In this document: piece after piece, positions 1,740 through 20,622 of the stretch | Layout of the letters: every line of letters begins with the position of its first letter | Position numbering within the stretch: position 1 is the stretch's first letter | Origin: an uncultured Gammaproteobacteria bacterium | Lineage (GTDB): Bacteria > Pseudomonadota > Gammaproteobacteria > GCA-001735895 | Assembly (NCBI GenBank): GCA_937894085.1 | Contig: CALCSG010000507.1 | Span: 1-58,827 of the forward strand | Direction: 5' to 3' | Length of the DNA: 58,827 bases | Program-made: the position numbers and the translations under genes | Notes under the pieces: model-generated | Database searches by the model: none | Told to the model about the DNA's origin: nothing | The model's input: the letters and a program-made list of their open reading frames with translations, nothing else

Positions 1740-2720
1740 CTACGAAATAGCCTGATAATACTGATTCTGCGGATGCTTTGCTTCGGCAAAAAAGTACCAG
1801 CGTTCAGCCATTAAACCTATATACTGAACGGCGAAAGCCACCATCGGTAAAAATGCAGATTGCATGAAATAAGAAGCTACAATCAGTGCAACCGGCACCA
1901 GAAATACCAGTACCAGAAAAATACGACGCATTGAATTTACGAAAAAAGGCGATTTGTGATGAAAGAATTCACGGGTATTAAATGAGCCCCCCATAAAACC
2001 CTGAGTTTGTTGCCTGATGGTCTGGTGACGAACGCCAATCGCAGAGCTTAAATTGAAATTATGCCTGAGATTGCGATTCCTGATTAGCGATGCAAATCGA
2101 GTGATTGCTGAGATCAACGTAAAAATCACCGCCCAGGTGCCAAAGAAAGCGACCAGATCAATGCCTTCATAAGCACTAAAAGCCGCCGCAAACATAAAAC
2201 CGGAAGCCAGCCCAAGAAAGGTAAAGTTCACTACAGTCAGGGGGGTGTACCATTCTTTCAGAAATTTAAGACTGGCATAAATCATAGCTGTACTAAGAAA
2301 CAAAACGAAAGCCGCAATACTTGCCAGAAACCCGACTATAAGACTCAGGTCTACCGGTAGCGCGTCAGATACGGTGAATAATGGTTGCGTCCAGCCAAAA
2401 AAATGGATCAGGACATACAGAAATACCAGGCCCATAAAAACTGGCAGAACGATGACTTCACGTGATAGCCAGGAAGTACGCCACTGCGTAACGGCACGCC
2501 AGGCACGCTCGGGATGTCCAAGATGAAAAAAGGATGCCAGTAACCCACCTGCCAGAAATACCAGTGCGACAAAACCGCCAAGTGCATAAAAATTCTGACT
2601 TTCCTGAGCCGGTAGCAACTGGGCCAGGCTATAAACCTGGCCGGTAAAAAGCGCCAGAAACAGACCCTGACCTATGCCGATCAGGGTGGTGAGAAAAATT
2701 ACTGAAAAAGCGGGATGCAT
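1740..2720 (-). CDS. soeC: Sulfite dehydrogenase membrane anchor SoeC (DmsC family)
   Basis: MHPAFSVIFLTT start, SFFHLGHPERAWRA, ERWYFFAEAKHPQNQYY; multiple TM helices; follows soeAB. Confidence 0.85.
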   Translation of the reverse strand: MHPAFSVIFLTTLIGIGQGLFLALFTGQVYSLAQLLPAQESQNFYALGGFVALVFLAGGLLASFFHLGHPERAWRAVTQWRTSWLSREVIVLPVFMGLVFLYVLIHFFGWTQPLFTVSDALPVDLSLIVGFLASIAAFVLFLSTAMIYASLKFLKEWYTPLTVVNFTFLGLASGFMFAAAFSAYEGIDLVAFFGTWAVIFTLISAITRFASLIRNRNLRHNFNLSSAIGVRHQTIRQQTQGFMGGSFNTREFFHHKSPFFVNSMRRIFLVLVFLVPVALIVASYFMQSAFLPMVAFAVQYIGLMAERWYFFAEAKHPQNQYYQAIS

Positions 2721-2774
2721 ATTGTTAAATTCCTAAATTGATTGAATAGCCATGCATTTATTGACCATGCAGGA

Positions 2775-3500
2775 TTACCAGGCGACGTCATCGAGTGTTT
2801 CACTCTGTTGATCGAAAGGCTCTTCATCTTCTTTACGCAGCGGATTATCGGCACGTACCAGTTCATCATCTGATATATGAATTTGCTGTTTGCGCCTTGG
2901 CAGATAATGATTAGACGGACGTGCGCCCCATTCCGGTTGCAACTGATATCCGCCCTGTTCTCGGATCGCCCTGGATGCTTCTGAATCGGCATCATGCACA
3001 TCACCAAAAATACGTGCACTGGTCGGACAGGCCATCACACAGGCAGGTTTACGTTCTTCCTCTGGCAAGTTCTTATCATAGATACGGTCGACGCATAATG
3101 TACACTTTTTCATGACCTTGCCGAGTTCATCAAATTCACGTGCACCGTAAGGGCATGCCCATGAACAGTACTTACAACCGATACATTTGTCATAATCCAC
3201 CAGCACGATACCGTCTTCCTCGCGCTTATAGCTGGCGCCGGTAGGACATACCGGTACGCAAGGTGGATCTTCGCAATGCAAACAGGATTTCGGAAAATGC
3301 ACGGTTTCTGTATTCGGATAACAACCGACCTCGTAGGTCTGAACCCGGTTAAAGAATACACCGGATGGATCTTCGTCATACGGGCGTTGATCCGGTAACG
3401 GCCCCGCCCAACCGGATGTATTCCATTGTTTACAGCTAGTGACACAGGCGTGACAACCCACACATACATTTAAATCAATTACCAACGCAAGTTGTGTCAT
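2775..3500 (-). CDS. soeB: Sulfite dehydrogenase Fe-S subunit SoeB
   Basis: Four ferredoxin-type Cys groups (CVGCHAC, CLHCEDPPC, CIGCKYC, CTLC...PAC); overlaps the soeA stop. Confidence 0.88.
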   Translation of the reverse strand: MTQLALVIDLNVCVGCHACVTSCKQWNTSGWAGPLPDQRPYDEDPSGVFFNRVQTYEVGCYPNTETVHFPKSCLHCEDPPCVPVCPTGASYKREEDGIVLVDYDKCIGCKYCSWACPYGAREFDELGKVMKKCTLCVDRIYDKNLPEEERKPACVMACPTSARIFGDVHDADSEASRAIREQGGYQLQPEWGARPSNHYLPRRKQQIHISDDELVRADNPLRKEDEEPFDQQSETLDDVAW

Positions 3501-6406
3501 TTGATACCCTCTTTTTTACGAAAAACGCCTGCAAAATACGACTGCCATTTCCCATTTCGTTTCTTTTGCCCCGGCAACTGCTTAAGCATTGGAAATTGCG
3601 GTGAAGTCTCCTGCGGTTCAGCATCATCGGCTTTATATATTTTAACCCGTACATCAAACCACGCAGCCTGCCCGGTCACTGGGTCCGAGTTAGAGAGGTG
3701 ATCACCTGCCTCACATTTTGGTAATTCTTCCGGAATCAAATGATTTAACAGGAATCCCTTTTTCGACTCGTTAGCTTTAGCCGATAATCCCCAGGCACCC
3801 GGGGCTTTACCAATCGCATTCCAGGTCCATACCGTACCCGGCTCAACTGCTTCGGAGTAACGACACATACAACGTACTTTACCGGTTGGGGATTCAACCC
3901 AGATCCAGTCACCGTCCTCAATACCTTTTGGCTTAGCGGCAAGTGGATTCACAAACAGATAGTTATGGGTATGAATCTGACGCAACCAGGCATTTAATGA
4001 ATCCCACGAGTGGTACATCGCCATAGGACGTTGCGTCAGGGCATTCAATGGATAATCCTGGGTGTTAGATAAACGTGATAACAATGTTTCACTGTAAAAC
4101 GGTAGAGGGTCGAAATTCTGCTCAATGCGTTTACGCAGACGATCTGGTGGCTGACGCCCTGTTGTTTTACCCTGCGCTGCCAGACGGAATTTCTGCAGAG
4201 GTTCAGAATATAGATGAATAGTAATCGGCTCTGCATAACGCGTCATACCATGCGCACGTGCCCAGTTCAGGTAACCCTTGTTCCAGTTACGCATGTATTG
4301 ATAAGACTTGGGCAGTTCGTAATGATAAACACAGCCATTCTTCTGGTACATTTCCCACTGGCGTGGATTAGGTTCACCTTTCAGAAACTTCTCGCCGCCT
4401 GTTCCTCGCCAGCCGGCCAGAAAACCAATACCGGAACCGGGAGAGGTTTCATAGTTGGTTATAAAATCAGGATAATCACGATATTTTCGCTCACCATCTT
4501 TATCAACAAAAGCTGGCAGTCCCAGTCGTGATCCCAGTTCGATCAGCACTTCCTGAAATGGTTTACATTCACCGGTTGGCGGTACCACAGGAATACGTAC
4601 AGCATCCACCGGGCCGCTGTATTCGGAAATAGGACGATCTAACATAGATAGAGCATCGTGACGCTCCAGATAAGTTGTATCGGGTAGCACCAGGTCGGCA
4701 AACGCTACGGTTTCTGACTGGAATGCATCACACACGATCAGAAATGGAATCTTGTATTCGCCGTTTTCATCCTTGTCTTTCAGCATGTCTCGCACACTCA
4801 CCGTATTCATCGACGAATTCCATGCCATATTGGCCATGAACAGCAACATGGTATCGATTTTGTACGGATCACCTCGCCAGGCGTTGGTGATAACATTGTG
4901 CATCAGGCCGTGTACTGATAACGGATATTCCCAGGAAAAAGCCTTGTCGAGACGTACCGGCTCACCTTTATCATCGATGAACAAATCTTCGGGTTTGGCT
5001 GGCCAGCCCAGAGGCATACCGTCGAGTGGCGTATTTGGCTGCACGCCATGTTCACTATTAGGCGGTTTAGGACAAGGTGGAATTGGGCGCGGAAAAGGTG
5101 CCTTGTGACGGAACCCGCCCGGACGATCAATAGTACCCAACAGTGTCATCAGGATACTGAGTGCGCGAATCGACTGGAAACCATTGGAGTGAGCTGCCAG
5201 ACCGCGCATTGCGTGAAACGCAACCGGGTTACCCTTGACTGACTCATGCACATTATCCCAGCAATCTTCCCACTGAATAGGTAACTCGATCTGATGGTCA
5301 CGAGCGGTAACACCCATTTCATGAGCCAGACGGATTATGTCTTCAGCAGGAATGCCGGTGATGCCTTCCGCCCATTCAGGGGTATATTCCTCGACCCGTT
5401 CTTTCAATAGCTGAAATGCCGGTTTTACAGCAGTACCATCTTCCAGCGTAAATGAACCCATCAGGCGAGGATCGACACCTGGAGTATGAGTAGAAATTTC
5501 CCTGTCAATCGCTGGATCCCACCACAGTTTGTTTTCAGGATCAAAACAACCTTCTTCAATATGCATTTCAAAACGCTTGAACAGTCCATGATCATCACGT
5601 TTCTCATCAGTGACAACCAGTTCAGCAGAGTTAGTGTATTGAACCAGGAACTCACGGTCGTATAAACCCTGTTTGATTAACTGGTGGATAATAGCCAGGA
5701 TCAAAGCACCATCAGTCCCCGGTTTGATAGGTACCCATTCATCAGCAATAGCAGAGTAACCACTACGAATCGGGTTGATGGAAATAAACTTGCCACCGTG
5801 ACGTTTGAACTTGGATATATGTATTTTTAACGGGTTTGAATCATGATCTTCTGCAGTACCGAACATCACAAATAACTTGGCACGTTCCAGATCAGGGCCA
5901 CCAAATTCCCAGAATGAACCACCAATCGAATAGATCATTCCGGCTGCCATGTTCACCGAACAAAAACCACCATGGGCGGAATAATTAGGTGTACCGAACT
6001 GTTTGGCGAACATACCAGTGAGGGCCTGCATCTGATCACGCCCGGTACACAGGGCAAACTTTTTGGGATCGTCAGCACGAATTTTCGCCAACCGCTCTGC
6101 CATGATATCGAAGGCTTTTTCCCACGAGATTTCTTCAAATTCAGAATCACCACGTTCAGCGCCTGGCTTACGTAATAAAGGTTTGGTTATACGTGCCGGA
6201 GAATATTGCTTCATGATACCGGATGAACCCTTGGCGCAAATTACTCCCTGATTATGCGGATGTTTCGGGTTACCTTCGATATAACGTATCTCACCATCTC
6301 TCAGTGTGACTTTTATACCGCAACGACAGGCACACATGTAGCATGTAGTCTCTTTGACTTCTATATTGCCTATATCACGGTCCGATTGGCTCGTTGGATC
6401 CTGCAT
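3497..6406 (-). CDS. soeA: Sulfite dehydrogenase molybdopterin subunit SoeA (969 aa)
   Basis: TTCYMCACRC...CAKG [4Fe-4S] motif, GGFCSVN Mo-ligand region and C-terminal MPT dinucleotide domain; no Tat signal. Start set at ATG 6406 rather than the ORF-track 6484. Confidence 0.85.
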   Translation of the reverse strand: MQDPTSQSDRDIGNIEVKETTCYMCACRCGIKVTLRDGEIRYIEGNPKHPHNQGVICAKGSSGIMKQYSPARITKPLLRKPGAERGDSEFEEISWEKAFDIMAERLAKIRADDPKKFALCTGRDQMQALTGMFAKQFGTPNYSAHGGFCSVNMAAGMIYSIGGSFWEFGGPDLERAKLFVMFGTAEDHDSNPLKIHISKFKRHGGKFISINPIRSGYSAIADEWVPIKPGTDGALILAIIHQLIKQGLYDREFLVQYTNSAELVVTDEKRDDHGLFKRFEMHIEEGCFDPENKLWWDPAIDREISTHTPGVDPRLMGSFTLEDGTAVKPAFQLLKERVEEYTPEWAEGITGIPAEDIIRLAHEMGVTARDHQIELPIQWEDCWDNVHESVKGNPVAFHAMRGLAAHSNGFQSIRALSILMTLLGTIDRPGGFRHKAPFPRPIPPCPKPPNSEHGVQPNTPLDGMPLGWPAKPEDLFIDDKGEPVRLDKAFSWEYPLSVHGLMHNVITNAWRGDPYKIDTMLLFMANMAWNSSMNTVSVRDMLKDKDENGEYKIPFLIVCDAFQSETVAFADLVLPDTTYLERHDALSMLDRPISEYSGPVDAVRIPVVPPTGECKPFQEVLIELGSRLGLPAFVDKDGERKYRDYPDFITNYETSPGSGIGFLAGWRGTGGEKFLKGEPNPRQWEMYQKNGCVYHYELPKSYQYMRNWNKGYLNWARAHGMTRYAEPITIHLYSEPLQKFRLAAQGKTTGRQPPDRLRKRIEQNFDPLPFYSETLLSRLSNTQDYPLNALTQRPMAMYHSWDSLNAWLRQIHTHNYLFVNPLAAKPKGIEDGDWIWVESPTGKVRCMCRYSEAVEPGTVWTWNAIGKAPGAWGLSAKANESKKGFLLNHLIPEELPKCEAGDHLSNSDPVTGQAAWFDVRVKIYKADDAEPQETSPQFPMLKQLPGQKKRNGKWQSYFAGVFRKKEGIK

Positions 6407-6608
6407 ACCTGAATTTTCCCGTATAAAAAGTAAAAACTCCAGTCCCGAATAAAGGATTAACTGGAGTATCCATAAAGCTAACACATTAATTACTTTATTC
6501 TAATATTCAAATATTGATGGTGCAACCCCAGCATTGAAGGGGTATTAACAGCATAAGAGATAGGGGTTATATCTCTGATTGGGTGAAAGACCAACAAAGT
6601 GACCGAAT

Positions 6609-8712: not shown

Positions 8713-10512
8713 GTGACTAAAAATAAAACTAAATTATTGATAATAATCCAGCTAGCCGCCTTCCTTACGATAAGCGGTTGTAAAACGATGTTTACTGAAA
8801 ACGGCTTTACGGCAAAACCGGATACCGCTCTATCTACAGCTGTATCTATTGATAGCCAGACATCAACGCAACCATTGCAAATCGAAAAAATCGCTAATAG
8901 CTCAGATGACAGTATAGCAAATGTAGAGATTAAGCCGACAGAAAACTATCTATCGCAAAACGATCTATCTGATTTCGATGCACAGGCAGCACAGATTCAC
9001 CAGGAATTAATTCAGCTACAGAATAATAATAAGCCGGAAAATCCACCTGTTGATGTTGAGGAAATAGCCCAGCTGGCGGAAATAGCGCTGCAAAATGAAA
9101 CCAATGCCTGGAGTCGCCTGCAATCAGGCATGCAAATGAATCCAGTAATGAATGACAGGGTTCAATCTCAACTTGACTGGTTTCTGGCTCATCCGGAATA
9201 CCTTACCCGGGTAATGCAACGAGCCTCTCCTATTCTTCCCTTTATTCTGGATGTTATTAACGAAAAAAATCTGCCTACAGAGATGGCTCTTTTACCCATC
9301 GTTGAAAGTGCCTATCAGGCATTTGCTTACTCACATGGCCGCGCTTCCGGCATGTGGCAAATCATACCATCTACCGGTAAGCATCTTGGACTAAAACAAA
9401 ACTGGTGGTATGACGGTCGACGCGACATTATTGAATCTACCCATGCTGCCACCGATTATTTGCAAAGCCTTGCTGGACAGTTTGATAATGACTGGGAACT
9501 GGCACTGGCTTCTTACAATGCCGGTCCCGGCAAAATTCGTTCTGCGATCAGGTACAATAAAAAGAAAGGCAGAAAAACAGATTTCTGGCATTTAACCCGT
9601 ATTCGCCCCGAAACTAAAAACTATGTGCCCAAATTATTAGCTCTGAAAGAATTATTTTCCCACCCGGATAAATACGGGCTTGACCTATTGCACATTGAGG
9701 ATGTACAAAGTTATGAAATAGTAGAGCTGGATAGTCAGATCGACCTGGCATTAGCCGCCGACCTGGCCGACATTACCACTAAAGAGCTTTACCAGTTAAA
9801 CCCTGCATTCAACCGTTGGGCTACCGCTCCGAATGGACCTCACCGGTTATTACTGCCTAAGGAGAATACTCAACAATTCAAAGATAACCTGGCCCAACTT
9901 CCAAAAAGCAAGCGCATAAACTGGGTTCGGTACAAGATTAAAAATGGTGACACCCTTAGTCAAATTGCAAAAAAATATCGAACCAGTACGGCTTTAATAA
10001 AAAATGTTAACCAGATTAAAAAAACTAACATTCGTGCTGGTAAATACCTGTTAATTCCAACGGCTACCAAATCTATAAAACAATACACCTTGAGCCAAAA
10101 TTCACGTCTGAATAAGATTAAGAATACTTCACGCCAGGGTCAGAAAATTACCCATATAGTTAAATCCGGTGATAGCCTGTGGAGCATTTCGCAACGCTAT
10201 AATGTAAAAACCCGCTCTCTGGCAAAATGGAATGGCATGGCACCTATCGATACTTTAAGTATCGGTCAGGAGCTGGTCATCTGGAAAACGACAAAAGCCC
10301 AGGCCCAGCACGTCAGTCTGCTTGACACCAGCCCTCAGCATAAAATGCATGCACTTCGATACACGGTACGTAAAGGAGATTCTTTATCACGTATCGCCGA
10401 TAAATTTAATTTACGTGTTGCCGACATAAAAAAATGGAATAAAGTCGGAAAATATATTAAACCCGGTCAAAAACTAAAACTATATGTCGACATCACCCGT
10501 CAATCAGGTTAA
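8713..10512 (+). CDS. mltD: Membrane-bound lytic murein transglycosylase D (SLT + 3 LysM), lipoprotein
   Basis: Lipobox TISGC; LLPIVESAY, ASGMWQIIPST, LALASYNAGPG; three LysM repeats (YKIKNGDTL, HIVKSGDSL, YTVRKGDSL). Confidence 0.93.
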   Translation: MTKNKTKLLIIIQLAAFLTISGCKTMFTENGFTAKPDTALSTAVSIDSQTSTQPLQIEKIANSSDDSIANVEIKPTENYLSQNDLSDFDAQAAQIHQELIQLQNNNKPENPPVDVEEIAQLAEIALQNETNAWSRLQSGMQMNPVMNDRVQSQLDWFLAHPEYLTRVMQRASPILPFILDVINEKNLPTEMALLPIVESAYQAFAYSHGRASGMWQIIPSTGKHLGLKQNWWYDGRRDIIESTHAATDYLQSLAGQFDNDWELALASYNAGPGKIRSAIRYNKKKGRKTDFWHLTRIRPETKNYVPKLLALKELFSHPDKYGLDLLHIEDVQSYEIVELDSQIDLALAADLADITTKELYQLNPAFNRWATAPNGPHRLLLPKENTQQFKDNLAQLPKSKRINWVRYKIKNGDTLSQIAKKYRTSTALIKNVNQIKKTNIRAGKYLLIPTATKSIKQYTLSQNSRLNKIKNTSRQGQKITHIVKSGDSLWSISQRYNVKTRSLAKWNGMAPIDTLSIGQELVIWKTTKAQAQHVSLLDTSPQHKMHALRYTVRKGDSLSRIADKFNLRVADIKKWNKVGKYIKPGQKLKLYVDITRQSG

Positions 10513-10626
10513 TTTCAATTTTACCAACCCGCTCACATTAAAAACATTGAGACCTATTGATTTCTCCGCTTAACGGTTACAAAATAGGTTTTCAGATACA
10601 GCTGTCGTAGGAAAAGCTTACTCACC

Positions 10627-11685
10627 ATGCCAACAGAAATTGATCCAAACGCCATAAAAGAACTGTCACCGATCAATTCATTAAATCATGAGAACGTTCA
10701 GGATTTAATAAAAAAAATAAAACTGGAAACAATTAACCCCGGTCATTACCTGTTTAAAAAAGGCGATATGGACAAGGCTCATGTTTACGTCATGAAAGGT
10801 ACCATTGAACTTGTTTTAAACAAAAAAATCATCAAAACAATTACTGGCGGCTCGGAAGACAGTAAACACCCGATAGCTCATTCCTTTCCGCGTACAGTTT
10901 CTGCAAGAGCTAAAACAGCCACCTCTATAATCCGCGTCAATAGTGACATGCTTGATATTATGCTTACCTGGGATCAAACGGGTAGCTACTCTGTAGAATC
11001 ACTCGAAGAGTCGGATAATGATGATTCCACTGACTGGATGACACGCATTTTACAAACCCGCGCTTTTCATAGAATACCCCCTGCTAACATTCAGGCGATG
11101 TTTATGCGCATGGAGACTGCACACTATAAACCGGGTGATATTGTCATCAACCAGGACGACACGGGCGACTACTTCTATATTATCAAAGAAGGCCGCTGCA
11201 TGGTTACCCGTTCTACTCCTGCAAACCCCAAAGGAGTGAAACTGGCAACTTTATCGGTAGGTGACAGCTTTGGAGAAGAGGCATTAATTTCTGAAAGTAA
11301 ACGAAATGCAACTGTTACCATGCTGACTGAAGGTAATCTAATGCGCCTGAATAAGGATGACTTTAATTCATTATTGAATGAACCCTTACTCAACTGGGCA
11401 GACTATGCAGAAGCAAAAAAGGTTATTGATGAGGGTGGCTTATGGCTCGATGTCAGGTTACCGGCTGAGTATAAAGCCAAACGCATTAAAAACAGCATCA
11501 ACATTCCACTTATTTTTTTACGCATGAAGGCGAACTCACTGGATAGCAGCAAAAAATATGTGATCTATTGTGATACTGGAAGACGTAGTTCTGCAGCTTC
11601 ATTCCTGTTGAATGAAAGAGACATTACTTCTTATGTGTTAACAGGTGGAGTCGATAACGCCGCACCAGATGATATCGAAGAATAA
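10627..11685 (+). CDS. Tandem cyclic-nucleotide-binding domains fused to a C-terminal rhodanese domain
   Basis: CNB-A (LFKKGD...HSFPRTVSA, degenerate), CNB-B (GDYFYIIKEG...GDSFGEEAL...KRNATV, canonical), rhodanese (LDVR..EY...I..SINIP...YCDTGRRS). Confidence 0.85.
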   Translation: MPTEIDPNAIKELSPINSLNHENVQDLIKKIKLETINPGHYLFKKGDMDKAHVYVMKGTIELVLNKKIIKTITGGSEDSKHPIAHSFPRTVSARAKTATSIIRVNSDMLDIMLTWDQTGSYSVESLEESDNDDSTDWMTRILQTRAFHRIPPANIQAMFMRMETAHYKPGDIVINQDDTGDYFYIIKEGRCMVTRSTPANPKGVKLATLSVGDSFGEEALISESKRNATVTMLTEGNLMRLNKDDFNSLLNEPLLNWADYAEAKKVIDEGGLWLDVRLPAEYKAKRIKNSINIPLIFLRMKANSLDSSKKYVIYCDTGRRSSAASFLLNERDITSYVLTGGVDNAAPDDIEE

Positions 11686-11779
11686 TAGAATCAAATATAA
11701 ATTGAGAACCACCCTTAACCACACTGATCACTGATAAACCCGGCACCTTCAGCATTACCAGAAGTTAAGAATTCAGGTA

Positions 11780-13387
11780 TTAATTCAGGTAAGCCATCTC
11801 AGAAATTTCGTTTGCAGTATCTATCTGTTCCGGATCAAGAAATTCTTCTGCATATTGCAGATAAACCTTTTCACCTACAAAAATATCGTATATATCAGGG
11901 TCGATATGATTATCCTGTTTCATAAAACTCATGATTTTCAGACACTCTGAAAGCTTTTTGCCTTTTTTATAAGGCCGATCAGAAGCCGTTAAAGCTTCAA
12001 AAATATCAGCAATAGCCATTATTCTTGTCTGAATAGACATTTCATCTTTGCGTAATCCCTTTGGATAACCGGTACCATCCATTTTCTCATGATGACCACC
12101 AGCATATTCAGGTACATTTTTTAAATGTTTAGGAAATGGCAGTGATTCAAGCATATTGATTGTGGCAACAATATGATGATTAATAACTTCTCGCTCTGCC
12201 TCATTTAGTGTCCCTTTACGAATTTTTAAATTCAATAATTCATCTTCACTCAGTAGCGATACCGTCTCACCTTTCATATTAATCCACTGTAGCTGCGCAA
12301 TCGAATTGACGCGATCAATATACTCATCCGTCATGAACTCTCCGCCCACGTTTGTCCTTTGTAGAAATTCGAAATCAAGTTTTAATTGATCGCATTGTTC
12401 ATTATAGCGAGTCGTCAAACCCTCAATTGATAGTCCCTGCTGCTGATAACTTTTACAGTTTTTTAAATATTCAATTTCCTTATCCCTTAATAAAATCTCA
12501 ATCTTATGTTCAATTATATGTATTCGATCAAATATTGTTTCCAGCTTTGTTGACTTATCCATCACATATTCGGGAGTCACAACCTTACCGCAATCATGTA
12601 ACCAGGCTGCGGTCTCCAGTTCATAACGATCTTTATCAGAAATGTGAAATGTTTGCAGTGGACCGGCATTCACCTTATTAACTGCCTCGGCCAACATCAT
12701 CGTCAATACAGGAATACGACGACAATGCCCTCCGGTATAAGGTGATTTATCATCGATCGCACTCGCAATCATTTTAATAAATGCTTCAAAAAGTTCCTGC
12801 AATTCATTTAACAGGCGTTTTTGAGTTAACGCTACTGCCGCCTGTGAAGCAAGTGATTCAGCTAACTGCTGATCGACTTCAGTGAAGCTGATTACGGAAC
12901 CAGTCTCAGGATCTTTAGCATTGATCAATTGCAAGACACCAATAATCTCACGCTCATGGTCTTTCAGCGGAAAAGTAAGAATAGATTGAGTTTTATATCC
13001 GGTAGAACTATCAAACTGTCGGGCACCGGTAAAATCATACCCATCTTCGTTATAGGCATCTTCAATATTGATGGTTTGCCCGGTTAATACACAATGACTG
13101 ACAACCATATGATGATTTTCACTGCCATCGTCAAGATAAAGCGGTAAAGCATCGAATTCTATTTTATTACCGGAAGTCCCTCCCATTTGTATCGATAACG
13201 AATCGTTTGAAATAATTTCAAATGATAGTGAATTTTGTTTGACAAAATATAGGGTTCCGCCGTCCGCATGGGTAAGAGCTTTTGCTCCCATCATAATTAA
13301 TTCAAGCAGTTTACCCGTGTCTTTCTCGGCAGATAAAGCTATACCAATTTCAGTCAGCCGATCAATTCTTTCCAGTAATTCATTCAT
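11780..13387 (-). CDS. GAF + HD-GYP cyclic-dinucleotide phosphodiesterase
   Basis: N-terminal GAF (ADGGTLY...GVLQLIN); YTGGHC, LHDCGK, HHEKMDGTGYPKGL, IADIFEALTASDRPYK. Confidence 0.88.
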   Translation of the reverse strand: MNELLERIDRLTEIGIALSAEKDTGKLLELIMMGAKALTHADGGTLYFVKQNSLSFEIISNDSLSIQMGGTSGNKIEFDALPLYLDDGSENHHMVVSHCVLTGQTINIEDAYNEDGYDFTGARQFDSSTGYKTQSILTFPLKDHEREIIGVLQLINAKDPETGSVISFTEVDQQLAESLASQAAVALTQKRLLNELQELFEAFIKMIASAIDDKSPYTGGHCRRIPVLTMMLAEAVNKVNAGPLQTFHISDKDRYELETAAWLHDCGKVVTPEYVMDKSTKLETIFDRIHIIEHKIEILLRDKEIEYLKNCKSYQQQGLSIEGLTTRYNEQCDQLKLDFEFLQRTNVGGEFMTDEYIDRVNSIAQLQWINMKGETVSLLSEDELLNLKIRKGTLNEAEREVINHHIVATINMLESLPFPKHLKNVPEYAGGHHEKMDGTGYPKGLRKDEMSIQTRIMAIADIFEALTASDRPYKKGKKLSECLKIMSFMKQDNHIDPDIYDIFVGEKVYLQYAEEFLDPEQIDTANEISEMAYLN

Positions 13388-13640
13388 ATAAAAGGCTAGT
13401 ACAGTTGAGCACTTAAACTAATAGTCCCGGTTTATGTTAAACATAAAGTGTAGTTCAACAATTACATTTATACTGTAGAATGAAGAATCTTATTAAAATT
13501 TTAAGCTACCTGTGTCACAAAACTTGATAACTATAAATATAAATCAAATTTATAATGTATTTAAGCTGGAAAAATTGCCGTTTCCTACCTATTATCCTTA
13601 CTCTTTATATAAATAATAAATACCTTAATGTGGAGAGGGC

Positions 13641-16274
13641 ATGAAATCCCATTTCTGGAGTACCGACTGGTTTATCGGTTTAATCATAACCATAATTATC
13701 ATACTGTCTTCAGGATCCAATCAATTACAAAGTCTTGAGCGTGAAGCTTATGACTGGGGTGTAAGATCAACTGAGCGTTTTCCTTCTGAAAAAATAGCTG
13801 TCATTGCTATTGATGATGTCAGTATTGCTAATATTGGCCGATGGCCCTGGCCTCGAGATCTGCATGCAGATATGATTAAGCAACTTGCAGAAGGTGGCGC
13901 CAAGGTCATAGGTCAAACTGTTTTTTTTCTTGAACCACAAACTGATCCCGGGATGGTTTATATCCGGGAATTAGTAAATTTTTTCTCAAATGCCAGCTTC
14001 AATGATATACCTGCAGACATAGATACTTTATCTACTCTCATTGAATCCGATAAGAAACACCGTGCAACAGCTGACCTTTTACAATTTTTTCTGCAGACCA
14101 ATCTACATACACGATTAAATCAGGATCTGGACACACTCAAATCAAGACTATTTGCAGCAGAGCAGGCACTGGATACCGATAGCAAACTGGCAGACAGTAT
14201 GTCCAGAGCAAAAAATGTCGTGCTTGCCATGCCTTTCATTCTGGGTACACCGCGTGGTAAACCGGATCAGCAATTACCAAACTATATTTTAAAAAATGCC
14301 TTATCGACAATTCACGACAGGGTTCAGGCACAGGCTCAGGGGCTTTACCCCATTACCTCGATTGACGCCATAGTCCCCATTCCTAAACTTGGTGCTGTAG
14401 CTTCTGCTATCGGACATTTAAATATAATACCTGATGTTGATGGTGCTATCCGTTCTGAAGCTCTGGTAATCAAGCATTATGATCGCTTCTACCCGTCGCT
14501 GGCCTTGCAACTGGCCGCGAAAAGCCTCAACTTGAGTAACTCTGATATAAAAGTAAATCTGGCTGAAAGTGTGGAGTTAGGCTCACTCAAAATTAAAACC
14601 GATAGCCAGCTTATGATGAACACCTTTTATTACTCCGATATCGAAGGGTTTCCTGCATTCCAGGTAGATTCATTTTACGATGTCTACTCGGGTAAAATTC
14701 CCATAGAAAAGTACCAGGGTAAAATAGTTATCATTGGTGCTACTGCCGTCGGCGTGGGTACCAACCAGGTAACGCCTATTGATTCTGCCATGCCTCCTGC
14801 ATTATCACTTGCCCACTCTGTTTCCAGTATTTTAAATGAAGACTTTTTCATCAATCCTGAGTGGGGTATCTGGGTAAGACTCGGTGCCTTCCTGTTTGTA
14901 GCTATTTACCTGATGCTCATCATGCCACGTTTAAAAGCAGGTGTTGCTGCCGCTCTGACTCTGCTTATTCTGGTTGGCTTACTGGCAAGTCATTTCATCC
15001 TGATGACATCAAACACCATGTGGATTCAACTCATGGGACCGGCAGCCCTGCTTGTCATAGGGCACCTGTTGATAACCACTAAACGATTTCTTGCCACCGA
15101 ACGCGGTAAAATTAAATCAGACGAAGAATCCTCAGAAAGCAACAGAATGCTCGGCATAGCCTTTCAGTCACAGGGTCAGCTCGATATGGCCTTTGAGAAA
15201 TTCAGAAAATGCCCGCTGGATGATTCAGTTATGGAAGCCATGTATAACCTGGCACTCGATTTCGAACGAAAACGCCAGTTCAATAAGGCGACCAGTGTCT
15301 ACCAGTATATGTCAAAACACGACACTCAGTTTCGTGATATCAAAGTTCGTATGGATCGCGCACAGCAGATGGAAGAAACCGTTATGTTTGGTGGTAGTGG
15401 CGGACACGCTGGTGGAACCTTACTACTCGATGGTAACAACATAGAAAAACCCATGCTGGGACGTTATCAAGTTGAAAAAGAGCTGGGCAAAGGTGCGATG
15501 GGCATAGTTTATCTGGGTAAAGATCCTAAAATTAGCAGGGTTGTTGCCATTAAAACAATGGCTTTAGCGCAGGAATTTGAACAGGATGAACTGGAAGAAG
15601 TAAAACAACGATTCTTCCGCGAAGCAGAGACTGCCGGACGTTTAAGCCACCCGAATATCGTCACCATCTTTGATGCCGGTGAAGAACATGACCTTGCCTA
15701 TATTGCGATGGAATTTCTGAAAGGCTCTGATCTGGCTCCACATACTAAAAAAGATAACCTGCTGGACATGAAAACAGTCGTCAGTATCGTCATACGTTCT
15801 GCGGAAGGCCTTGCATTTGCACACGCACAAAACGTTGTGCACAGAGATATCAAACCTGCTAATTTAATGTATGAACCAGAATCAGATAGTTTAAAGATTA
15901 CCGATTTTGGTATCGCGCGCATAACTGATTCAAGCAAGACAAAGACCGGCATGGTCCTTGGCACACCGTCATACATGTCTCCAGAACAGTTAGCAGGAAA
16001 AAAAGTAGATGGCCGTTCTGATTTATTTTCACTAGGCGTCATGTTGTATCAGTTACTTTGCGGTTCCCTGCCCTTCAAGGCAGAATCAATGGCCAGCCTA
16101 ATGTTCAAAATAACCAATGATGAGGCTCCTGACATCCTTACTTATAGACAGGACATACCGCAATGCCTGATCCCAATTATTAATAAAACGCTCATAAAGG
16201 ACGCTGATAAGCGCTACCAGACTGGAACGGATTTAGCCAATGACTTAAAACTTTGCCTTATGAAAATGCAGTAA
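13641..16274 (+). CDS. CHASE2-sensor membrane Ser/Thr protein kinase (CHASE2 - 3 TM - TPR-like - Hanks kinase)
   Basis: CHASE2 motifs (IDDVSIANIGRWPWPR, PDVDGAIR); three hydrophobic helices; LGKGAMGIVY, VAIK, HRDIKPAN, DFGIAR, GTPSYMSPEQ. Confidence 0.92.
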   Translation: MKSHFWSTDWFIGLIITIIIILSSGSNQLQSLEREAYDWGVRSTERFPSEKIAVIAIDDVSIANIGRWPWPRDLHADMIKQLAEGGAKVIGQTVFFLEPQTDPGMVYIRELVNFFSNASFNDIPADIDTLSTLIESDKKHRATADLLQFFLQTNLHTRLNQDLDTLKSRLFAAEQALDTDSKLADSMSRAKNVVLAMPFILGTPRGKPDQQLPNYILKNALSTIHDRVQAQAQGLYPITSIDAIVPIPKLGAVASAIGHLNIIPDVDGAIRSEALVIKHYDRFYPSLALQLAAKSLNLSNSDIKVNLAESVELGSLKIKTDSQLMMNTFYYSDIEGFPAFQVDSFYDVYSGKIPIEKYQGKIVIIGATAVGVGTNQVTPIDSAMPPALSLAHSVSSILNEDFFINPEWGIWVRLGAFLFVAIYLMLIMPRLKAGVAAALTLLILVGLLASHFILMTSNTMWIQLMGPAALLVIGHLLITTKRFLATERGKIKSDEESSESNRMLGIAFQSQGQLDMAFEKFRKCPLDDSVMEAMYNLALDFERKRQFNKATSVYQYMSKHDTQFRDIKVRMDRAQQMEETVMFGGSGGHAGGTLLLDGNNIEKPMLGRYQVEKELGKGAMGIVYLGKDPKISRVVAIKTMALAQEFEQDELEEVKQRFFREAETAGRLSHPNIVTIFDAGEEHDLAYIAMEFLKGSDLAPHTKKDNLLDMKTVVSIVIRSAEGLAFAHAQNVVHRDIKPANLMYEPESDSLKITDFGIARITDSSKTKTGMVLGTPSYMSPEQLAGKKVDGRSDLFSLGVMLYQLLCGSLPFKAESMASLMFKITNDEAPDILTYRQDIPQCLIPIINKTLIKDADKRYQTGTDLANDLKLCLMKMQ

Positions 16275-16346
16275 AATCATGATTCATTATTATCCTTTAA
16301 AAACTATCTTTTTCCGAATGCAAATTTTATCTGTGCGAGAGCGGAC

Positions 16347-17168
16347 ATGAACCTGCAGGGCAAGATACAGATTGTCGGAAAAACTGATACCGGAAGGGTT
16401 CGACAAAATAACGAAGACTGTATTGGTTTTGACAGTGCATTAGGGCTACTTGTTTTAGCAGATGGCATGGGGGGACACCTCGGAGGTGAAGTTGCAAGCT
16501 CACTCACTGTCGATAGCATCATTAAATCTTCTCAGAATCACCTGCCCTCTATCAAGGCCGGTCAAATTGACTCTGAAACAGGTTTTTCACTTGAATCCAT
16601 CTGTATTCAGGAAGCCGTTGAGCTGGCAAATGACCTCGTTTATCGTAAATCAACTGAACAGCTTGAACTTCGTGGCATGGGCACCACATTAGTGGCGATG
16701 GTATTTTACGATAATCGATTTTCTCTGGCGCATATTGGTGATTCACGGTGTTATCGCTTTAGAAATAACAATTTAGACCAGATTACCAAGGACCATTCAC
16801 TGTTGCAGGAACTGGTGGATCGTGGTTTTTACACGCCCGAAGAAGCCAAGAAATCGCTCAATAAAAACCTGGTAACCAAGGCATTAGGCATAGACCCCAC
16901 AACAACACCGGATGTTCAGGAAGATTTAGCCATGAAAAATGATATCTACCTGCTATGCTCTGATGGATTAACAGATTTAGTAGAAGATGAATATATAAGC
17001 TTAACTATTCAGAGATTTAGTGATAATCTAGAAGAAGCTGCCAAGCAATTGATTACAAAGGCAAACCAGAATGGTGGAAAGGATAATATTTCTGTTATTC
17101 TGTGCCGAATAATTGAAGATTTTTCGGAATCTCCGGGCTGGTTCAAAAAATTAATTGAATGGTTTTAA
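16347..17168 (+). CDS. PP2C/Stp1-family Ser/Thr protein phosphatase
   Basis: TDTGRVRQNNED, ADGMGGH, MGTT, HIGDSR, LCSDGL, GGKDNIS. Confidence 0.92.
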   Translation: MNLQGKIQIVGKTDTGRVRQNNEDCIGFDSALGLLVLADGMGGHLGGEVASSLTVDSIIKSSQNHLPSIKAGQIDSETGFSLESICIQEAVELANDLVYRKSTEQLELRGMGTTLVAMVFYDNRFSLAHIGDSRCYRFRNNNLDQITKDHSLLQELVDRGFYTPEEAKKSLNKNLVTKALGIDPTTTPDVQEDLAMKNDIYLLCSDGLTDLVEDEYISLTIQRFSDNLEEAAKQLITKANQNGGKDNISVILCRIIEDFSESPGWFKKLIEWF

Positions 17169-17256
17169 ATGGATTACAGTGAAAGCTTTATCACTGAATA
17201 TGAAACATTTTAAGTTTTCTCAGAAGCAATAACTTAACACGAGGCTGGACATAGAC

Positions 17257-17979
17257 ATGGTCGCAAAATTGGTAATGACATCAAACTCAGGGGAACACGA
17301 AGAAATCCCTCTTACCAAGGAAACTACAACCATTGGGCGTAAACCTAGTAATGACATTCATATTGATAATTTATCTGTGAGCGGTAATCATGCGCAGGTT
17401 ATTACTATTCTTGAAGATTCTTTCCTCGAAGATTTGGGCAGCACCAATGGAACGTATGTTAATGGAAAATTAATCAAGAAACATGCTCTGGAACACGGTG
17501 ACAAAATCACTCTGGGCAAATACCAGATATCCTATGAAAGCAGCTCCGGTGGTTCAGATCAGGATTTTGAACAAACCATGATTATCCGTCCAGGTGAAGC
17601 CGGTATGCCGGAAGAAGCAGGTAGTAAGGAAATAGATAAGTCAGTACAAAAAATATCAGCTGCTATCGCCTCTGAAACTGCTTCTACTAACAGATCTGCT
17701 ACTGAGGATAAGACAGCCTGCTTACAACTATTAAGCGGAGCTAATGCCGGCAAAGAGCTTGTGCTTAAAAAAGCACTGACCACTATTGGACAACCCGGAG
17801 TTCAGGTAGCAGCTATCACAAGACGGCCACAGGGCTTCTTTTTAATTCACGTCGATGGAGGCCCGGACAATAACGTGCCTAAAGTAGCAGGTAGCCCTAT
17901 TGGATCGAATGCCCATCAGTTAAATGACCATGACATCATTGAAGTTGCCGGTGTCAAAATGGAGTTTTATACCAAATAA
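17257..17979 (+). CDS. FHA-domain protein (canonical N-terminal FHA plus degenerate C-terminal FHA-like domain)
   Basis: TIGRKPSND...SVSGNHA...DLGSTNGTYVNG; the second region LLSGANAGKELVL...TIG...LNDHDIIEVAG lacks the GR/SxxH residues. Confidence 0.85.
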   Translation: MVAKLVMTSNSGEHEEIPLTKETTTIGRKPSNDIHIDNLSVSGNHAQVITILEDSFLEDLGSTNGTYVNGKLIKKHALEHGDKITLGKYQISYESSSGGSDQDFEQTMIIRPGEAGMPEEAGSKEIDKSVQKISAAIASETASTNRSATEDKTACLQLLSGANAGKELVLKKALTTIGQPGVQVAAITRRPQGFFLIHVDGGPDNNVPKVAGSPIGSNAHQLNDHDIIEVAGVKMEFYTK

Positions 17980-17985
17980 ACAGGC

Positions 17986-18036
17986 TAGAGTGTCACTCTA
18001 AATAAAGTCTCTAAAGTTGAATTTAGCGACTTTATT
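17986..18036. other. Palindrome plus hairpin between the FHA and cyclase genes
   Basis: TAGAGTG-T-CACTCTA (17986-18000), followed directly by AATAAAGTC.CTAAA-loop-TTTAG.GACTTTATT (18001-18036). Confidence 0.4.
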
Positions 18037-18082
18037 GCAAGTGTTACCGGCTTCAGTATCCCAATAAACTGAGGAGAACTCT

Positions 18083-20314
18083 ATGCGACTGCAACAAATT
18101 TTTAGGCTTTCTTTAAGCCTTCTAATTTTAATTGCTTTGCTAATTGATTCTTCCGGTTTGTTTCACTATCCCTTCCTGCAAAAACTGGAAAACTGGACTT
18201 ACGATTCCAGGCTGAACTTCACGCTTCCGAATACGATCGATGATCAGGTTGTCATTATTGATATAGATGAAACCTCTCTGGAAAAAATTGGAAGATTCCC
18301 ATGGAAAAGGGATATTCTTGCCGAACTGGTCAATAACCTGTTCGAATTTTACCAGGTAAAAACACTTGGCTTTGATATAGTATTTGCCGAAAAAGATACC
18401 AGCTCCGGTTTAGAAGCTTTTACGAAACTGGCTGAGAATGAACTCAAAGATGATCCTCAATATCAAACTGCACTCGAAAAACTACGACCTTCGTTACAAT
18501 ATGACCACCTCTTTGCACAAAGTTTATTAAATAAAGATATTGTATTAGGCTATTACTTCAGGTCTGGCGTGAAACAGGGTGAAGCAGCCGAAATTGGATC
18601 TTTACCCTTAGCCATTACCCAAATGACTGAGGAGTGGAGTAAGCGCTTACCCATTTATAAATCAGAAGGGTATAGCGCAAACCTTCCAGTGCTACAAAAA
18701 GCTTCCAAATCCGGCGGCTATTTTGATAACCCATCCGTTGATGCAGATGGCGTTTTTCGACGTGTTCCGCTAATTCAGTCATACAACAGTTTCTTATATT
18801 CATCACTGGCATTAGCCACTGCCCGACTGGCACTAGATGACCCTAAAATCGAGCTTATCATCGAAACAGACGGCAAAAAGAACGGACAGGATTATTTCGC
18901 ACTGGAAGCTATCAACCTTGGGCAAAACAAAATACCAGTTGATCATAATGGTGCCGTGTATGTGCCATATCGGGGTAAACAGGGCAGTTTCAATTATATT
19001 TCAGCCTATAAAATTCTGCATAAAACGGCAGATGCAAATCTGTTAAAAGGCAAGATTGTACTGGTAGGTACAACGGCTCCCGGCTTACTGGACCTGCGCT
19101 CTACACCGGTACAAAATGTTTACCCGGGAGTAGAAGTTCATGCCAATATCATATCTGGAATATTGAATCAGACTATAAAACAAAAACCAGCCTGGGCCAT
19201 AGGATATGAATTTGTCATCCTTATCCTGATTGCAATAGCCATGTTCCTGGTACTCACTTATCTCTCGCCTACGCTGGCCGCAATCAGCTCACTGATAATT
19301 ACTTTAATTGTCATTACTGGAAATATACTGGCCTGGAACAGCTTATTGATTTTACCTCTGGCATCTCCCCTGCTGTTAATAGCACTGATGTTCACTTTGC
19401 ACATGACTTACGGTTTCTTCATAGAATCCAGAGGTAAGCGCCAGTTAGCGCACATGTTCGGACAATATATTCCCCCTGAGCTGGTGGATGAAATGAGTGA
19501 AACAGCCTCCGAGTTTTCGCTTGAAGGAGAAAGCAGGGAAATGACGGTACTGTTCTCAGATGTGCGCGGATTTACCACGATTTCGGAAGGTCTTGACCCT
19601 AAACAATTGACCAGCCTGATGAATGCTTTGTTAACACCAATGACACGCGTTATTCATAAAAACAGGGGAACCATCGATAAATACATGGGTGATGCCATCA
19701 TGTCATTCTGGGGAGCCCCCCTTCACGATCCGGAGCATGCCCGACACGCATTATATGCCGCCTTTGACATGATGGATGAATTGAAAATCATGCAGCAGGA
19801 ATTCCGTGAAAAAGGCTGGCCAGAAGTCAATATAGGTATTGGTTTGAACACCGGCATTATGAATGTCGGTAATATGGGGTCAGAATTCAGAGTCGCTTAT
19901 ACAGTGCTGGGAGATGCAGTTAATCTCGGCTCTCGATTAGAGGGCCTGACCAAAGCCTATGGCGTCAATATCATTGTTAGTGAAACGACCAGGTCAGCAG
20001 TTCCAGAATTCATTTTTCGCCAACTGGATGTTGTTCGAGTTAAAGGCAAAAACGAACCCATCGCGATCTTTGAGCCTATAGGCCACAAAAATGATGTCGA
20101 GAAATCCGTCATTTCTGAACTATCACGCTACAATCAGGCACTCAGGGTATATCACCAGCAAAATTGGGATAAAGCTGAAATGGAATTTTTCAATCTTTCA
20201 CAGTCCAATAAGAACTGTCAATTATATAAGGAATATCTCAACCGCATTACAAGTTACCGTAAAGCCCCTCCAGACGACAACTGGGATGGCGTCTACACTC
20301 ATACAACGAAATGA
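18083..20314 (+). CDS. CHASE2-sensor class III adenylate cyclase
   Basis: CHASE2 (IDIDETSLEKIGRFPWKR, DADGVFRRVPL); 3 TM; LFSDVRGFT, DKYMGDA, GIGLNTG, YTVLGDAVNLGSRLE (Lys/Thr adenine-specifying residues, Asn/Arg transition-state residues). Confidence 0.9.
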   Translation: MRLQQIFRLSLSLLILIALLIDSSGLFHYPFLQKLENWTYDSRLNFTLPNTIDDQVVIIDIDETSLEKIGRFPWKRDILAELVNNLFEFYQVKTLGFDIVFAEKDTSSGLEAFTKLAENELKDDPQYQTALEKLRPSLQYDHLFAQSLLNKDIVLGYYFRSGVKQGEAAEIGSLPLAITQMTEEWSKRLPIYKSEGYSANLPVLQKASKSGGYFDNPSVDADGVFRRVPLIQSYNSFLYSSLALATARLALDDPKIELIIETDGKKNGQDYFALEAINLGQNKIPVDHNGAVYVPYRGKQGSFNYISAYKILHKTADANLLKGKIVLVGTTAPGLLDLRSTPVQNVYPGVEVHANIISGILNQTIKQKPAWAIGYEFVILILIAIAMFLVLTYLSPTLAAISSLIITLIVITGNILAWNSLLILPLASPLLLIALMFTLHMTYGFFIESRGKRQLAHMFGQYIPPELVDEMSETASEFSLEGESREMTVLFSDVRGFTTISEGLDPKQLTSLMNALLTPMTRVIHKNRGTIDKYMGDAIMSFWGAPLHDPEHARHALYAAFDMMDELKIMQQEFREKGWPEVNIGIGLNTGIMNVGNMGSEFRVAYTVLGDAVNLGSRLEGLTKAYGVNIIVSETTRSAVPEFIFRQLDVVRVKGKNEPIAIFEPIGHKNDVEKSVISELSRYNQALRVYHQQNWDKAEMEFFNLSQSNKNCQLYKEYLNRITSYRKAPPDDNWDGVYTHTTK

Positions 20315-20437: not shown

Positions 20438-20569
20438 ATGGAACTGTTCATGGATTTATTTAGTGACTGGGTTGGCCTGTTATCCTTAGGGACTATCGTT
20501 TTTATACTTTTTATAGCAGCCTATTTCATTTATCTATTTATGTCTAAATCAGCTGATCCCAACGAATAA
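20438..20569 (+). CDS. 43-aa single-TM small protein, DUF3149-like
   Basis: Below the ORF-track cutoff. MELFMDLFSDWVGLLSLGTIVFILFIAAYFIYLFMSKSADPNE; AGAGAG upstream. The VGLLSL.TI.F...YF pattern matches my recollection of DUF3149. Confidence 0.75.
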   Translation: MELFMDLFSDWVGLLSLGTIVFILFIAAYFIYLFMSKSADPNE

Positions 20570-20622
20570 TTCACTCTGAAAAGAAAACCACGGCATCAGC
20601 TGTTTTTAACGGCTGATACCAT

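Follow-up and report, generated by a model that had tools for sequence, protein, structure and literature searches.

Six signalling genes stand side by side at positions 10627-20314 of contig CALCSG010000507.1, from an uncultured gammaproteobacterium, and they raise the question whether they encode one signalling system and how information would pass through it. The window, i.e. the whole stretch of 58,827 nucleotides that was analysed, was checked for open reading frames (ORFs) and Pfam domains. All six genes were intact, and their ORFs and domains were exactly those given in a preliminary description: a Ser/Thr kinase and an adenylate cyclase that each carry a CHASE2 domain, a PP2C phosphatase, an FHA protein, a GAF-HD-GYP phosphodiesterase and a protein with two cyclic nucleotide-binding (CNB) domains and a rhodanese domain. 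The part that is conserved as a unit consists of a writer, an eraser and a reader of phosphothreonine (pThr), coupled to a receptor adenylate cyclase. The readers of cyclic AMP (cAMP), namely CNB2 and the GAF domains, and the turnover of cyclic di-GMP (c-di-GMP) are frequent, lineage-variable attachments to this unit. With a probability of about one half, we read the region as encoding a membrane-anchored relay, which would run from the kinase and the phosphatase via the FHA protein to the cyclase, and from there via the cAMP readers to a fall in c-di-GMP.

The gene order is dnaQ, rnhA and a methyltransferase gene (all leftward), mltD (SLT and three LysM domains) and the CNB-CNB-rhodanese gene (both rightward), the GAF-HD-GYP gene (leftward), then the kinase, PP2C, FHA and cyclase genes and a DUF3149 ORF (all rightward), followed by avtA (leftward). 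The features are:

10627..11685, + strand, CNB-CNB-rhodanese protein, 352 aa, Pfam two cNMP_binding and Rhodanese
11780..13387, - strand, GAF-HD-GYP phosphodiesterase, 535 aa, Pfam GAF and HD_5
13388..13640, no strand, divergent intergenic region between the HD-GYP and kinase genes, 253 bp
13641..16274, + strand, CHASE2 Ser/Thr kinase, 877 aa, Pfam CHASE2 and Pkinase
16347..17168, + strand, PP2C Ser/Thr phosphatase, 273 aa, Pfam PP2C
17257..17979, + strand, two-domain FHA protein, 240 aa, Pfam FHA
18083..20314, + strand, CHASE2 adenylate cyclase, 743 aa, Pfam CHASE2 and Guanylate_cyc
20440..20571, + strand, small DUF3149 membrane ORF, 43 aa, Pfam PF11346 at 3.6e-13, one transmembrane segment

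The CNB-rhodanese and HD-GYP genes had been described as flanking the four-gene run. They do adjoin it, although not on both sides, as both lie upstream. Within the run, the same-strand genes are separated by spacers of 72, 88 and 103 bp, and the scan of the window detected no terminator-like site inside it. The short gaps and the lack of a terminator are compatible with an operon, which is not a proof of one.

Linkage of the genes in two orders

The linkage was analysed with the kinase as the anchor. When one genome per species was scanned, relatives of the kinase were found in 451 species, and the analysis covered the 80 best loci (89-56% identity). Wherever the flank sufficed in these 80 species loci, the kinase gene was followed by PP2C and FHA, with the exception of one Gallionella locus. 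In this metagenome-assembled genome (MAG; L080:9950-17496), two PAS-GGDEF-EAL genes take the place of PP2C and FHA after the CHASE2 kinase, which is another pairing of such a kinase with c-di-GMP turnover. The cyclase was the next gene in all loci of the close clade (at least 70% identity) with enough downstream flank. This adjacency says little, because the whole neighbourhood including the housekeeping genes is syntenic there. The four-gene block also persisted in L014, L023 and L025, where the flanks were changed and breakpoints had occurred on both sides. In Sulfuricella-type and other loci the cyclase gene was again adjacent, either co-directional (L046, L067) or convergent (L062, L068, L074, L076). 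A sister gamma clade has the triad between sppA and rlmD; there, the cyclase gene was found 4-8 kb further on, past a cysM/barA-like/pdxJ block, in every locus of that arrangement that reached far enough (L044, L047, L055, L061, L063, L075).

A second gene order was observed with HD-GYP as the anchor. The alignment used for this search had the Sulfuricella orthologue as its lead sequence, and it yielded 80 metagenomic loci, of which the 23 with at least 9 kb upstream were used for the counts. In this order, that of the beta-type, Sulfuricella-like version, the genes of the CHASE2 kinase, PP2C, an FHA-FHA' protein, the CHASE2 cyclase, a class II cAMP phosphodiesterase, in some loci the CNB-CNB-rhodanese protein, a GAF-MshEN-T2SSE ATPase, the GAF-HD-GYP enzyme and a type IV pilin form a recurrent cluster that is co-directional and tightly packed. 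Upstream of HD-GYP, PP2C was found in 22 of the 23 loci, the PilB-like ATPase in 21, the class II cAMP phosphodiesterase in 20, the cyclase in 18 and the CNB-rhodanese gene in 11; the kinase was often past the 10-kb flank. A pilin ORF on the same strand was present downstream in 30 HD-GYP-anchored loci, and in 23 of those the nearest one was less than 1 kb away. Since the six families occur together in this second order as well, they travel together in two gene orders.

The beta-type proteins are 36-62% identical to their counterparts in the window and have the same key residues. Of the additional members, the class II cAMP phosphodiesterase has a metallo-beta-lactamase fold (PF02112) and its gene adjoins that of the cyclase. 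The ATPase is PilB/PilF-like with an MshEN domain, and its GAF domain best matches the cAMP-binding GAF of CyaB2. As the pilus ATPase and the pilin follow the signalling genes in these clusters, a type IV pilus or a surface behaviour is the probable physiological output. Co-directional clusters of eight to nine genes were seen on Sulfuricella-like metagenomic contigs in L097, L098 (L098:3-11605), L107-L109, L117, L121, L126, L133, L137 and L150. These clusters often have a type IV pilin gene and TPR-GT41 glycosyltransferase genes after them.

With the CNB-rhodanese protein as the query, 1317 representatives were obtained at E <1e-30, and the best 150 were inspected for length. The stand-alone form of 340-370 aa accounted for about one quarter of these 150, and most others were much longer. 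Five of the eight representatives examined with Pfam were 1040-1800 aa long and had the CNB-CNB-rhodanese module N-terminally and an FGE-sulfatase domain (PF03781) C-terminally; the intervening stretch gave coiled-coil-type Pfam matches in two. These giants are P0246, P0248, P0250, P0267 and P0300, and in the loci L091:7207-12252 and L092:10001-15388 their genes follow rpmB-rpmG and are unlinked to the kinase. We know of no characterised protein of this giant type. In P0241, the CNB-rhodanese gene was linked to HD-GYP and the triad. One contig encoded a fusion of CNB-CNB-rhodanese to FHA (P0263, 562 aa, L081:3011-4699) among unrelated neighbours, which may be taken as a Rosetta-stone hint that the cAMP module meets pThr signalling. 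In several lineages the CNB-rhodanese gene lies beside mltD (SLT and LysM domains; 8713-11685 in the window; also L085, L089 and L082), at 43-53% identity and in both orientations. This adjacency could reflect old synteny or a link to the cell wall. A 532-aa kinase encoded near the CNB-rhodanese gene in L089 was dismissed as a coincidence, as it has 35% identity in the kinase domain and is without CHASE2. The linkage anchored on CNB-rhodanese alone would make this protein look like a bystander.

Several observations weigh against a relay that comprises all six proteins. The HD-GYP gene was deleted in L013, L024 and L038, both the HD-GYP and the CNB-rhodanese genes were gone in L023, and the loci of the sister gamma clade, about 30 of the 80, contained neither. 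The CNB-rhodanese gene adjoined mltD and gloB with no CHASE2 kinase in P0245, was placed amid housekeeping genes in P0251 and adjoined mltD in P0266, where an unrelated kinase is two genes off; more often, this protein is the N-terminal module of the giant coiled-coil/FGE-sulfatase proteins. The window, like the gamma loci, has no cAMP phosphodiesterase, PilB-like ATPase or pilin. One ancestral cluster may have given rise to both the gamma and the beta-type arrangement, and because of this possibility their linkage is not fully independent. Finally, linkage cannot order a pathway. The CNB-rhodanese and HD-GYP genes are accessory to the four-gene core, and the neighbourhood survey that had been proposed for all six genes bore out the core and uncovered the second order, while the two accessory genes were lost or unlinked in some lineages.

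The losses and the unlinked copies favour a functional unit of kinase, PP2C, FHA and cyclase only, beside which the CNB-rhodanese and GAF-HD-GYP proteins would be independent and their genes kept in place by the synteny of dnaQ, rnhA, the methyltransferase gene and mltD. The synteny of the close-clade neighbourhood, housekeeping genes included, and the retention of the core where either gene was lost agree with this. We regard such a restricted unit as unlikely, because both families recur with the same core in the packed co-directional cluster of the other order. In addition, the breakpoint in L014 parts the CNB-rhodanese gene from HD-GYP, and HD-GYP remains with the kinase; PP2C and the cyclase also precede HD-GYP in most of the loci counted above (22/23 and 18/23).

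Kinase, phosphatase and FHA protein

In both CHASE2 proteins, a single transmembrane (TM) segment precedes the periplasmic domain of about 380 aa, and three more lead on to a cytoplasmic output domain. In the kinase, the Pfam CHASE2 match covers the periplasmic domain and the adjoining TM region (nt 13689-14903), and the Hanks kinase domain follows at nt 15465-16220. The best matches among the NCBIfam models were of the PknB/Stk1 type, and the motifs GxGxxG, VAIK, HRD and DFG are all present. A TPR-like linker, with the conserved motifs MEETV and GGTLxL, connects the last TM segment to the kinase domain. A homology of this linker to the C-terminal tail of the cyclase was rejected (hhalign probability 4%).

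The phosphatase scored above the cut-off of the NCBIfam model NF033484 (Stp1/IreP; 248.3 bits vs 230) and aligned over its full length with PstP (2cm1, 1.5e-41). Its motifs RxxNED, DGMGG, GDSR, DGxxD and GGxDN are all present. The preliminary description had claimed full catalytic motifs for the kinase, PP2C, cyclase and HD-GYP proteins, and these were indeed found, with 96-100% conservation in up to 78 orthologues.

The FHA protein has a canonical, GarA/OdhI-like FHA domain at its N-terminus (about nt 17299-17544), in which the GR, SxxH and NG residues are 100% conserved. The linker behind it contains the motif F-E-x-T107-M-I-I-R-P (nt 17566-17592), in which T107 was invariant throughout the 71 gamma and 21 beta-type sequences. 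With Ile at pT+3, the motif would fit a pT-x-x-I FHA ligand. The C-terminal 88 residues (nt 17710-17976) form a degenerate FHA-like domain, which aligned with the N-terminal one in hhalign (probability 97.9%, E 5.6e-13) and gave weak Yop-YscD_cpl and FHA matches. It lacks the GR and SxxH elements, the Arg being lost. A single-sequence AlphaFold2 (AF2) model of the protein had a predicted local distance difference test (pLDDT) score of 37.8, too low to be of use. The matches to TagH and GltG in NCBIfam were below cut-off; for the TagH/Fha1 model TIGR03354, the score was 47.3 bits at a cut-off of 120.25, and the FHA domain alone aligned. A Rosetta-stone lead came from the PDB matches 3gqs and 6hbz, where FHA occurs in fusions with cyclase-like and GGDEF proteins.

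Kinase, PP2C and FHA genes also make up the composition of the PpkA/PppA/Fha1 pathway of threonine phosphorylation, and PP2C matched Pseudomonas aeruginosa PppA (6jkv) at 2.7e-26. The genes might thus belong to a type VI secretion system (T6SS) whose secretion genes are encoded elsewhere. This was judged extremely improbable. The Pfam scan of the window ORFs of at least 148 aa found no T6SS gene, as had been stated before, and in the fetched loci none was present among the annotated conserved neighbours of the orthologues, so the cluster was not seen beside T6SS genes elsewhere. The sensor is CHASE2 and not vWA, and the FHA protein, with 240 aa, stays far below the TIGR03354 cut-off.

The CHASE2 modules of the kinase and the cyclase are only 24% identical, which adds to the points against a relay, since different cues and a parallel action are possible. 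For the same reason, we rejected the idea that the two are recent duplicates that sense the same ligand. A shared ligand is possible and not indicated, and the earlier proposal that one periplasmic cue drives both proteins is not borne out at this level of identity. Two parallel sensors without a relay would mean that the triad acts on another target, such as the pilus ATPase or, via MltD, the envelope, that the cyclase sets cAMP alone and that the genes cluster as they serve the same behaviour. In line with this, rlmD, cysM, barA-like and pdxJ part FHA from the cyclase in the sister gamma clade, and known FHA adaptors act on machines of the secretion or pilus type, for example T6SS Fha1, even if TagH and GltG matched the window protein below cut-off only. 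In spite of these points the parallel arrangement appears improbable. Across contexts the cyclase is the most consistent neighbour of FHA, sometimes the sole one that is not a housekeeping gene, and FHA-gated nucleotide cyclases occur as fusions.

Predicted synthesis, sensing and turnover of cyclic nucleotides

In the cyclase, the Pfam CHASE2 match spans nt 18143-19237 and the cyclase domain nt 19535-20059, followed by a C-terminal TPR-like tail. Its nearest solved relative is CyaB of P. aeruginosa (3r5g, 3.9e-34). The residues D493, K533, D537, T607, N614 and R618, which include both metal Asp, are 100% conserved in the gamma and beta-type orthologues. The protein is a class III cyclase, and by family rules its Lys533/Thr607 substrate pair predicts that it is ATP-specific. 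The E-x-T-V-L-F stretch in EMTVLFSD resembles the ExT-hydrophobic motif and was dismissed as a generic class III beta1 strand.

In the CNB-CNB-rhodanese protein, CNB2 has a canonical phosphate-binding cassette (nt 11269-11313). In CNB1 the Arg of the cassette is kept and the Gly-Glu is lost. The FGEE..RNAT sequence and Cys315 were invariant in 32 gamma orthologues. In 21 beta-type orthologues F215, G216, E217, E218, R226, N227, A228 and C315 were invariant, and T229 was found in 71%. An interdomain TWDQ motif was invariant as well. The rhodanese domain has the Cys loop YCDTGRRS (nt 11566-11589), with a six-residue CxxGxR loop (CDTGRR) of the single-domain PspE/GlpE type; its PspE matches in NCBIfam were below cut-off. 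An AF2 model showed the domains with confidence and their arrangement without it, at a predicted TM score (pTM) of 0.40. From its cassette, the protein is a candidate cAMP receptor.

The GAF-HD-GYP gene encodes, on the minus strand, a GAF domain at nt 12827-13312, the HD residues at 12593-12598 and the HHExxDGxGYP motif at 12062-12100. The definitions of the motifs (HD, HHExxDGxGYP, RxY[K/R]) were taken from 10.1101/2021.11.05.467447, and all motifs, including R471-P-Y-K474 (RxYK), were 100% conserved. The nearest solved relative was PmGH (4mcw, 3e-32), and V-cGAP3 was also close. Within the HD-GYP domain, about 105 aa are inserted (nt 12227-12544, minus strand), separating the HD helix from the KPG-equivalent motif, and this insertion was conserved in all orthologues; a similar insertion after GAF has been described in REC-GAF-HD-GYP proteins (PMC12943098). 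The substrates of HD-GYP enzymes are c-di-GMP or cGAMP, to the exclusion of other cyclic dinucleotides, and the GAF-HD-GYP protein Tlr0485 is a c-di-GMP phosphodiesterase that is activated by cAMP (10.1101/2021.11.05.467447). The GAF domain of the window protein matched the cNMP-type GAFs of PDE5, PDE2 and CyaB2. The protein is predicted to be a c-di-GMP phosphodiesterase of the PmGH type, which is probably regulated by cAMP via its GAF domain. It had been proposed earlier as the eraser of cAMP; this assignment was given up, because the enzyme is of the PmGH type with RxYK and the beta-type cluster has a dedicated class II cAMP phosphodiesterase.

Under that earlier proposal, the locus would resemble a protein kinase A (PKA) cascade, in which the two-CNB protein controls the kinase, HD-GYP erases cAMP and the rhodanese provides a sulfur-transfer output. 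The tandem CNBs do have their best matches in the CNBs of PKG and PKA, and the catalytic Cys of the rhodanese is invariant. We nevertheless consider this cascade very unlikely. The comparison with the PKA regulatory subunit does not hold, as the protein has no RRxS/A inhibitor site (none in the N-terminal 40 residues), no docking domain and a CNB1 without Gly-Glu. The kinase is a membrane protein of the PknB-like Hanks type and not of the AGC type. The retained RxYK agrees with the cleavage of c-di-GMP or cGAMP, and the eraser of cAMP in the beta-type cluster would be the class II phosphodiesterase.

The analysis shows the gene content, the intact motifs and the conserved linkage in two orders; for the membrane-anchored relay, we infer which protein phosphorylates which, the action of FHA on the cyclase, the ligands of the CNB and GAF domains, the flow of information and the output. 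The CHASE2 kinase would write pThr marks, likely on its own juxtamembrane linker and on Thr107 of the FHA protein, and PP2C would reset them. The FHA adaptor, with one canonical pThr-binding FHA and one degenerate interaction domain, would then gate the neighbouring CHASE2 cyclase. Candidate readers of the cAMP are CNB2 in the CNB-CNB-rhodanese protein and the cNMP-type GAF of the GAF-HD-GYP enzyme, which would hydrolyse c-di-GMP and not cAMP. In this way, the phosphorylation status and periplasmic cues would raise cAMP and lower c-di-GMP. A further-reaching version, with a widespread pThr, cAMP and c-di-GMP circuit in one cluster that includes a cAMP-gated rhodanese and controls type IV pilus assembly, is possible but doubtful.

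Known relatives and the remaining window

The PpkA-PppA-Fha1 proteins of P. aeruginosa serve the threonine phosphorylation of the T6SS, with a pThr switch on the adaptor. In the window, too, the Hanks kinase is a membrane protein and is encoded together with a PP2C eraser and an FHA reader. Unlike there, the sensor is CHASE2 instead of vWA, T6SS genes are absent from the ORFs scanned, the partner gene is an adenylate cyclase, and the small FHA protein has a degenerate FHA domain besides the canonical one. GarA and OdhI are FHA phospho-switches of Actinobacteria that are tied to Hanks kinases. Like them, the window protein is small, has the canonical residues for pThr binding and bears a conserved Thr motif beyond the domain. 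It differs in that this motif is C-terminal and not N-terminal to the FHA, in the second degenerate FHA domain and in having no evident link to enzymes of the tricarboxylic acid (TCA) cycle.

Among the cyclases, the CHASE2 proteins CyaD1, CyaD2 and CyaK of Sinorhizobium meliloti make cAMP and signal to the Crp-type Clr (PMC13001267). The window cyclase has the same build of a TM segment, periplasmic CHASE2, three TM segments and a class III domain with catalytic residues. In contrast to these proteins, its gene sits with a kinase/PP2C/FHA triad, and the linked readers are CNB-rhodanese and GAF-HD-GYP. The latter shares its architecture and all metal, GYP and RxYK motifs with Tlr0485 of Thermosynechococcus and PmGH of Persephonella (4mcw). 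Tlr0485, which is cAMP-activated at its GAF, is a direct precedent for cross-talk from cAMP to c-di-GMP. The window protein differs from both by its insertion of about 105 aa and by being encoded beside a cyclase/kinase module. With its MshEN PilB-like ATPase and pilin gene, the beta-type cluster is also reminiscent of the c-di-GMP-binding ATPases of the MshE/PilB type; the extra cAMP-type GAF sets its ATPase apart, and an ATPase of this kind and a pilin are both absent from the window.

All parts come from known families; what is new is their assembly. For five of the six proteins, NCBIfam lacks a specific model, and in the paper library that was searched no description was found for the CHASE2 kinase/FHA/cyclase, the CNB-rhodanese or the MshEN-GAF-cAMP-HD-GYP combination. 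With a core that is conserved across clades, the view of an apparently undescribed multi-gene signalling system unrelated to T6SS was upheld. To our knowledge, a Hanks kinase/PP2C/FHA triad has not been described in any characterised system as joined to both a receptor adenylate cyclase and cAMP-sensing c-di-GMP turnover. Should the relay prove true, it would provide a first function and partners for the CHASE2 Ser/Thr kinases of 451 species genomes and a new gating of class III cyclases via pThr and FHA. It would also hard-wire the three main signalling currencies of bacteria to one another, which in sediment bacteria that cycle sulfur and iron would probably serve to control type IV pili. 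The CNB-CNB-rhodanese module is flagged as a widespread, unstudied candidate cAMP effector.

Regulatory elements of the window were searched by scans. In the intergenic region between HD-GYP and the kinase, a sigma-70-like site was found at 13567-13595 (+ strand), which is a match to the consensus only, of a kind not more frequent than in shuffled sequences. The promoter and terminator scans of the window showed no enrichment. A search with the CRP-box consensus gave 21 matches vs 27.6 expected, none of them in the kinase/HD-GYP intergenic region, and the Rfam and tRNA scans of the window had zero matches. The DUF3149 ORF (20440-20571) lies between the cyclase gene and avtA, is followed by a hairpin and was kept only in the closest relatives (L001-L006, L036); its membership in the system is doubtful.

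The remaining window ORFs that were scanned are housekeeping or metabolic and comprise a Mo-oxidoreductase, two Opp/Dpp transporters, ExbBD-TonB, ccm genes, a TRAP transporter and a phosphoribulokinase. The phosphoribulokinase gene at 53275-54213 (+ strand) suggests a Calvin-cycle autotroph, and the sulfur- and iron-oxidiser taxa that carry the kinase (Sulfuricella, Gallionella, Thiotrichaceae) agree with it. The source, a marine or sediment bacterium, belongs to an uncultured gammaproteobacterial MAG lineage, and this gene together with the sulfur-associated taxa among the relatives suggests an autotrophic sulfur bacterium. A Crp/Fnr-type regulator (cNMP_binding and HTH_Crp_2) is encoded at 986-1693 (+ strand), adjoining a three-subunit molybdopterin oxidoreductase with a DmsC-type anchor at 1740-6484 (- strand). 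The first 2 kb of the window have a G+C content of 35%, compared to about 42% elsewhere.

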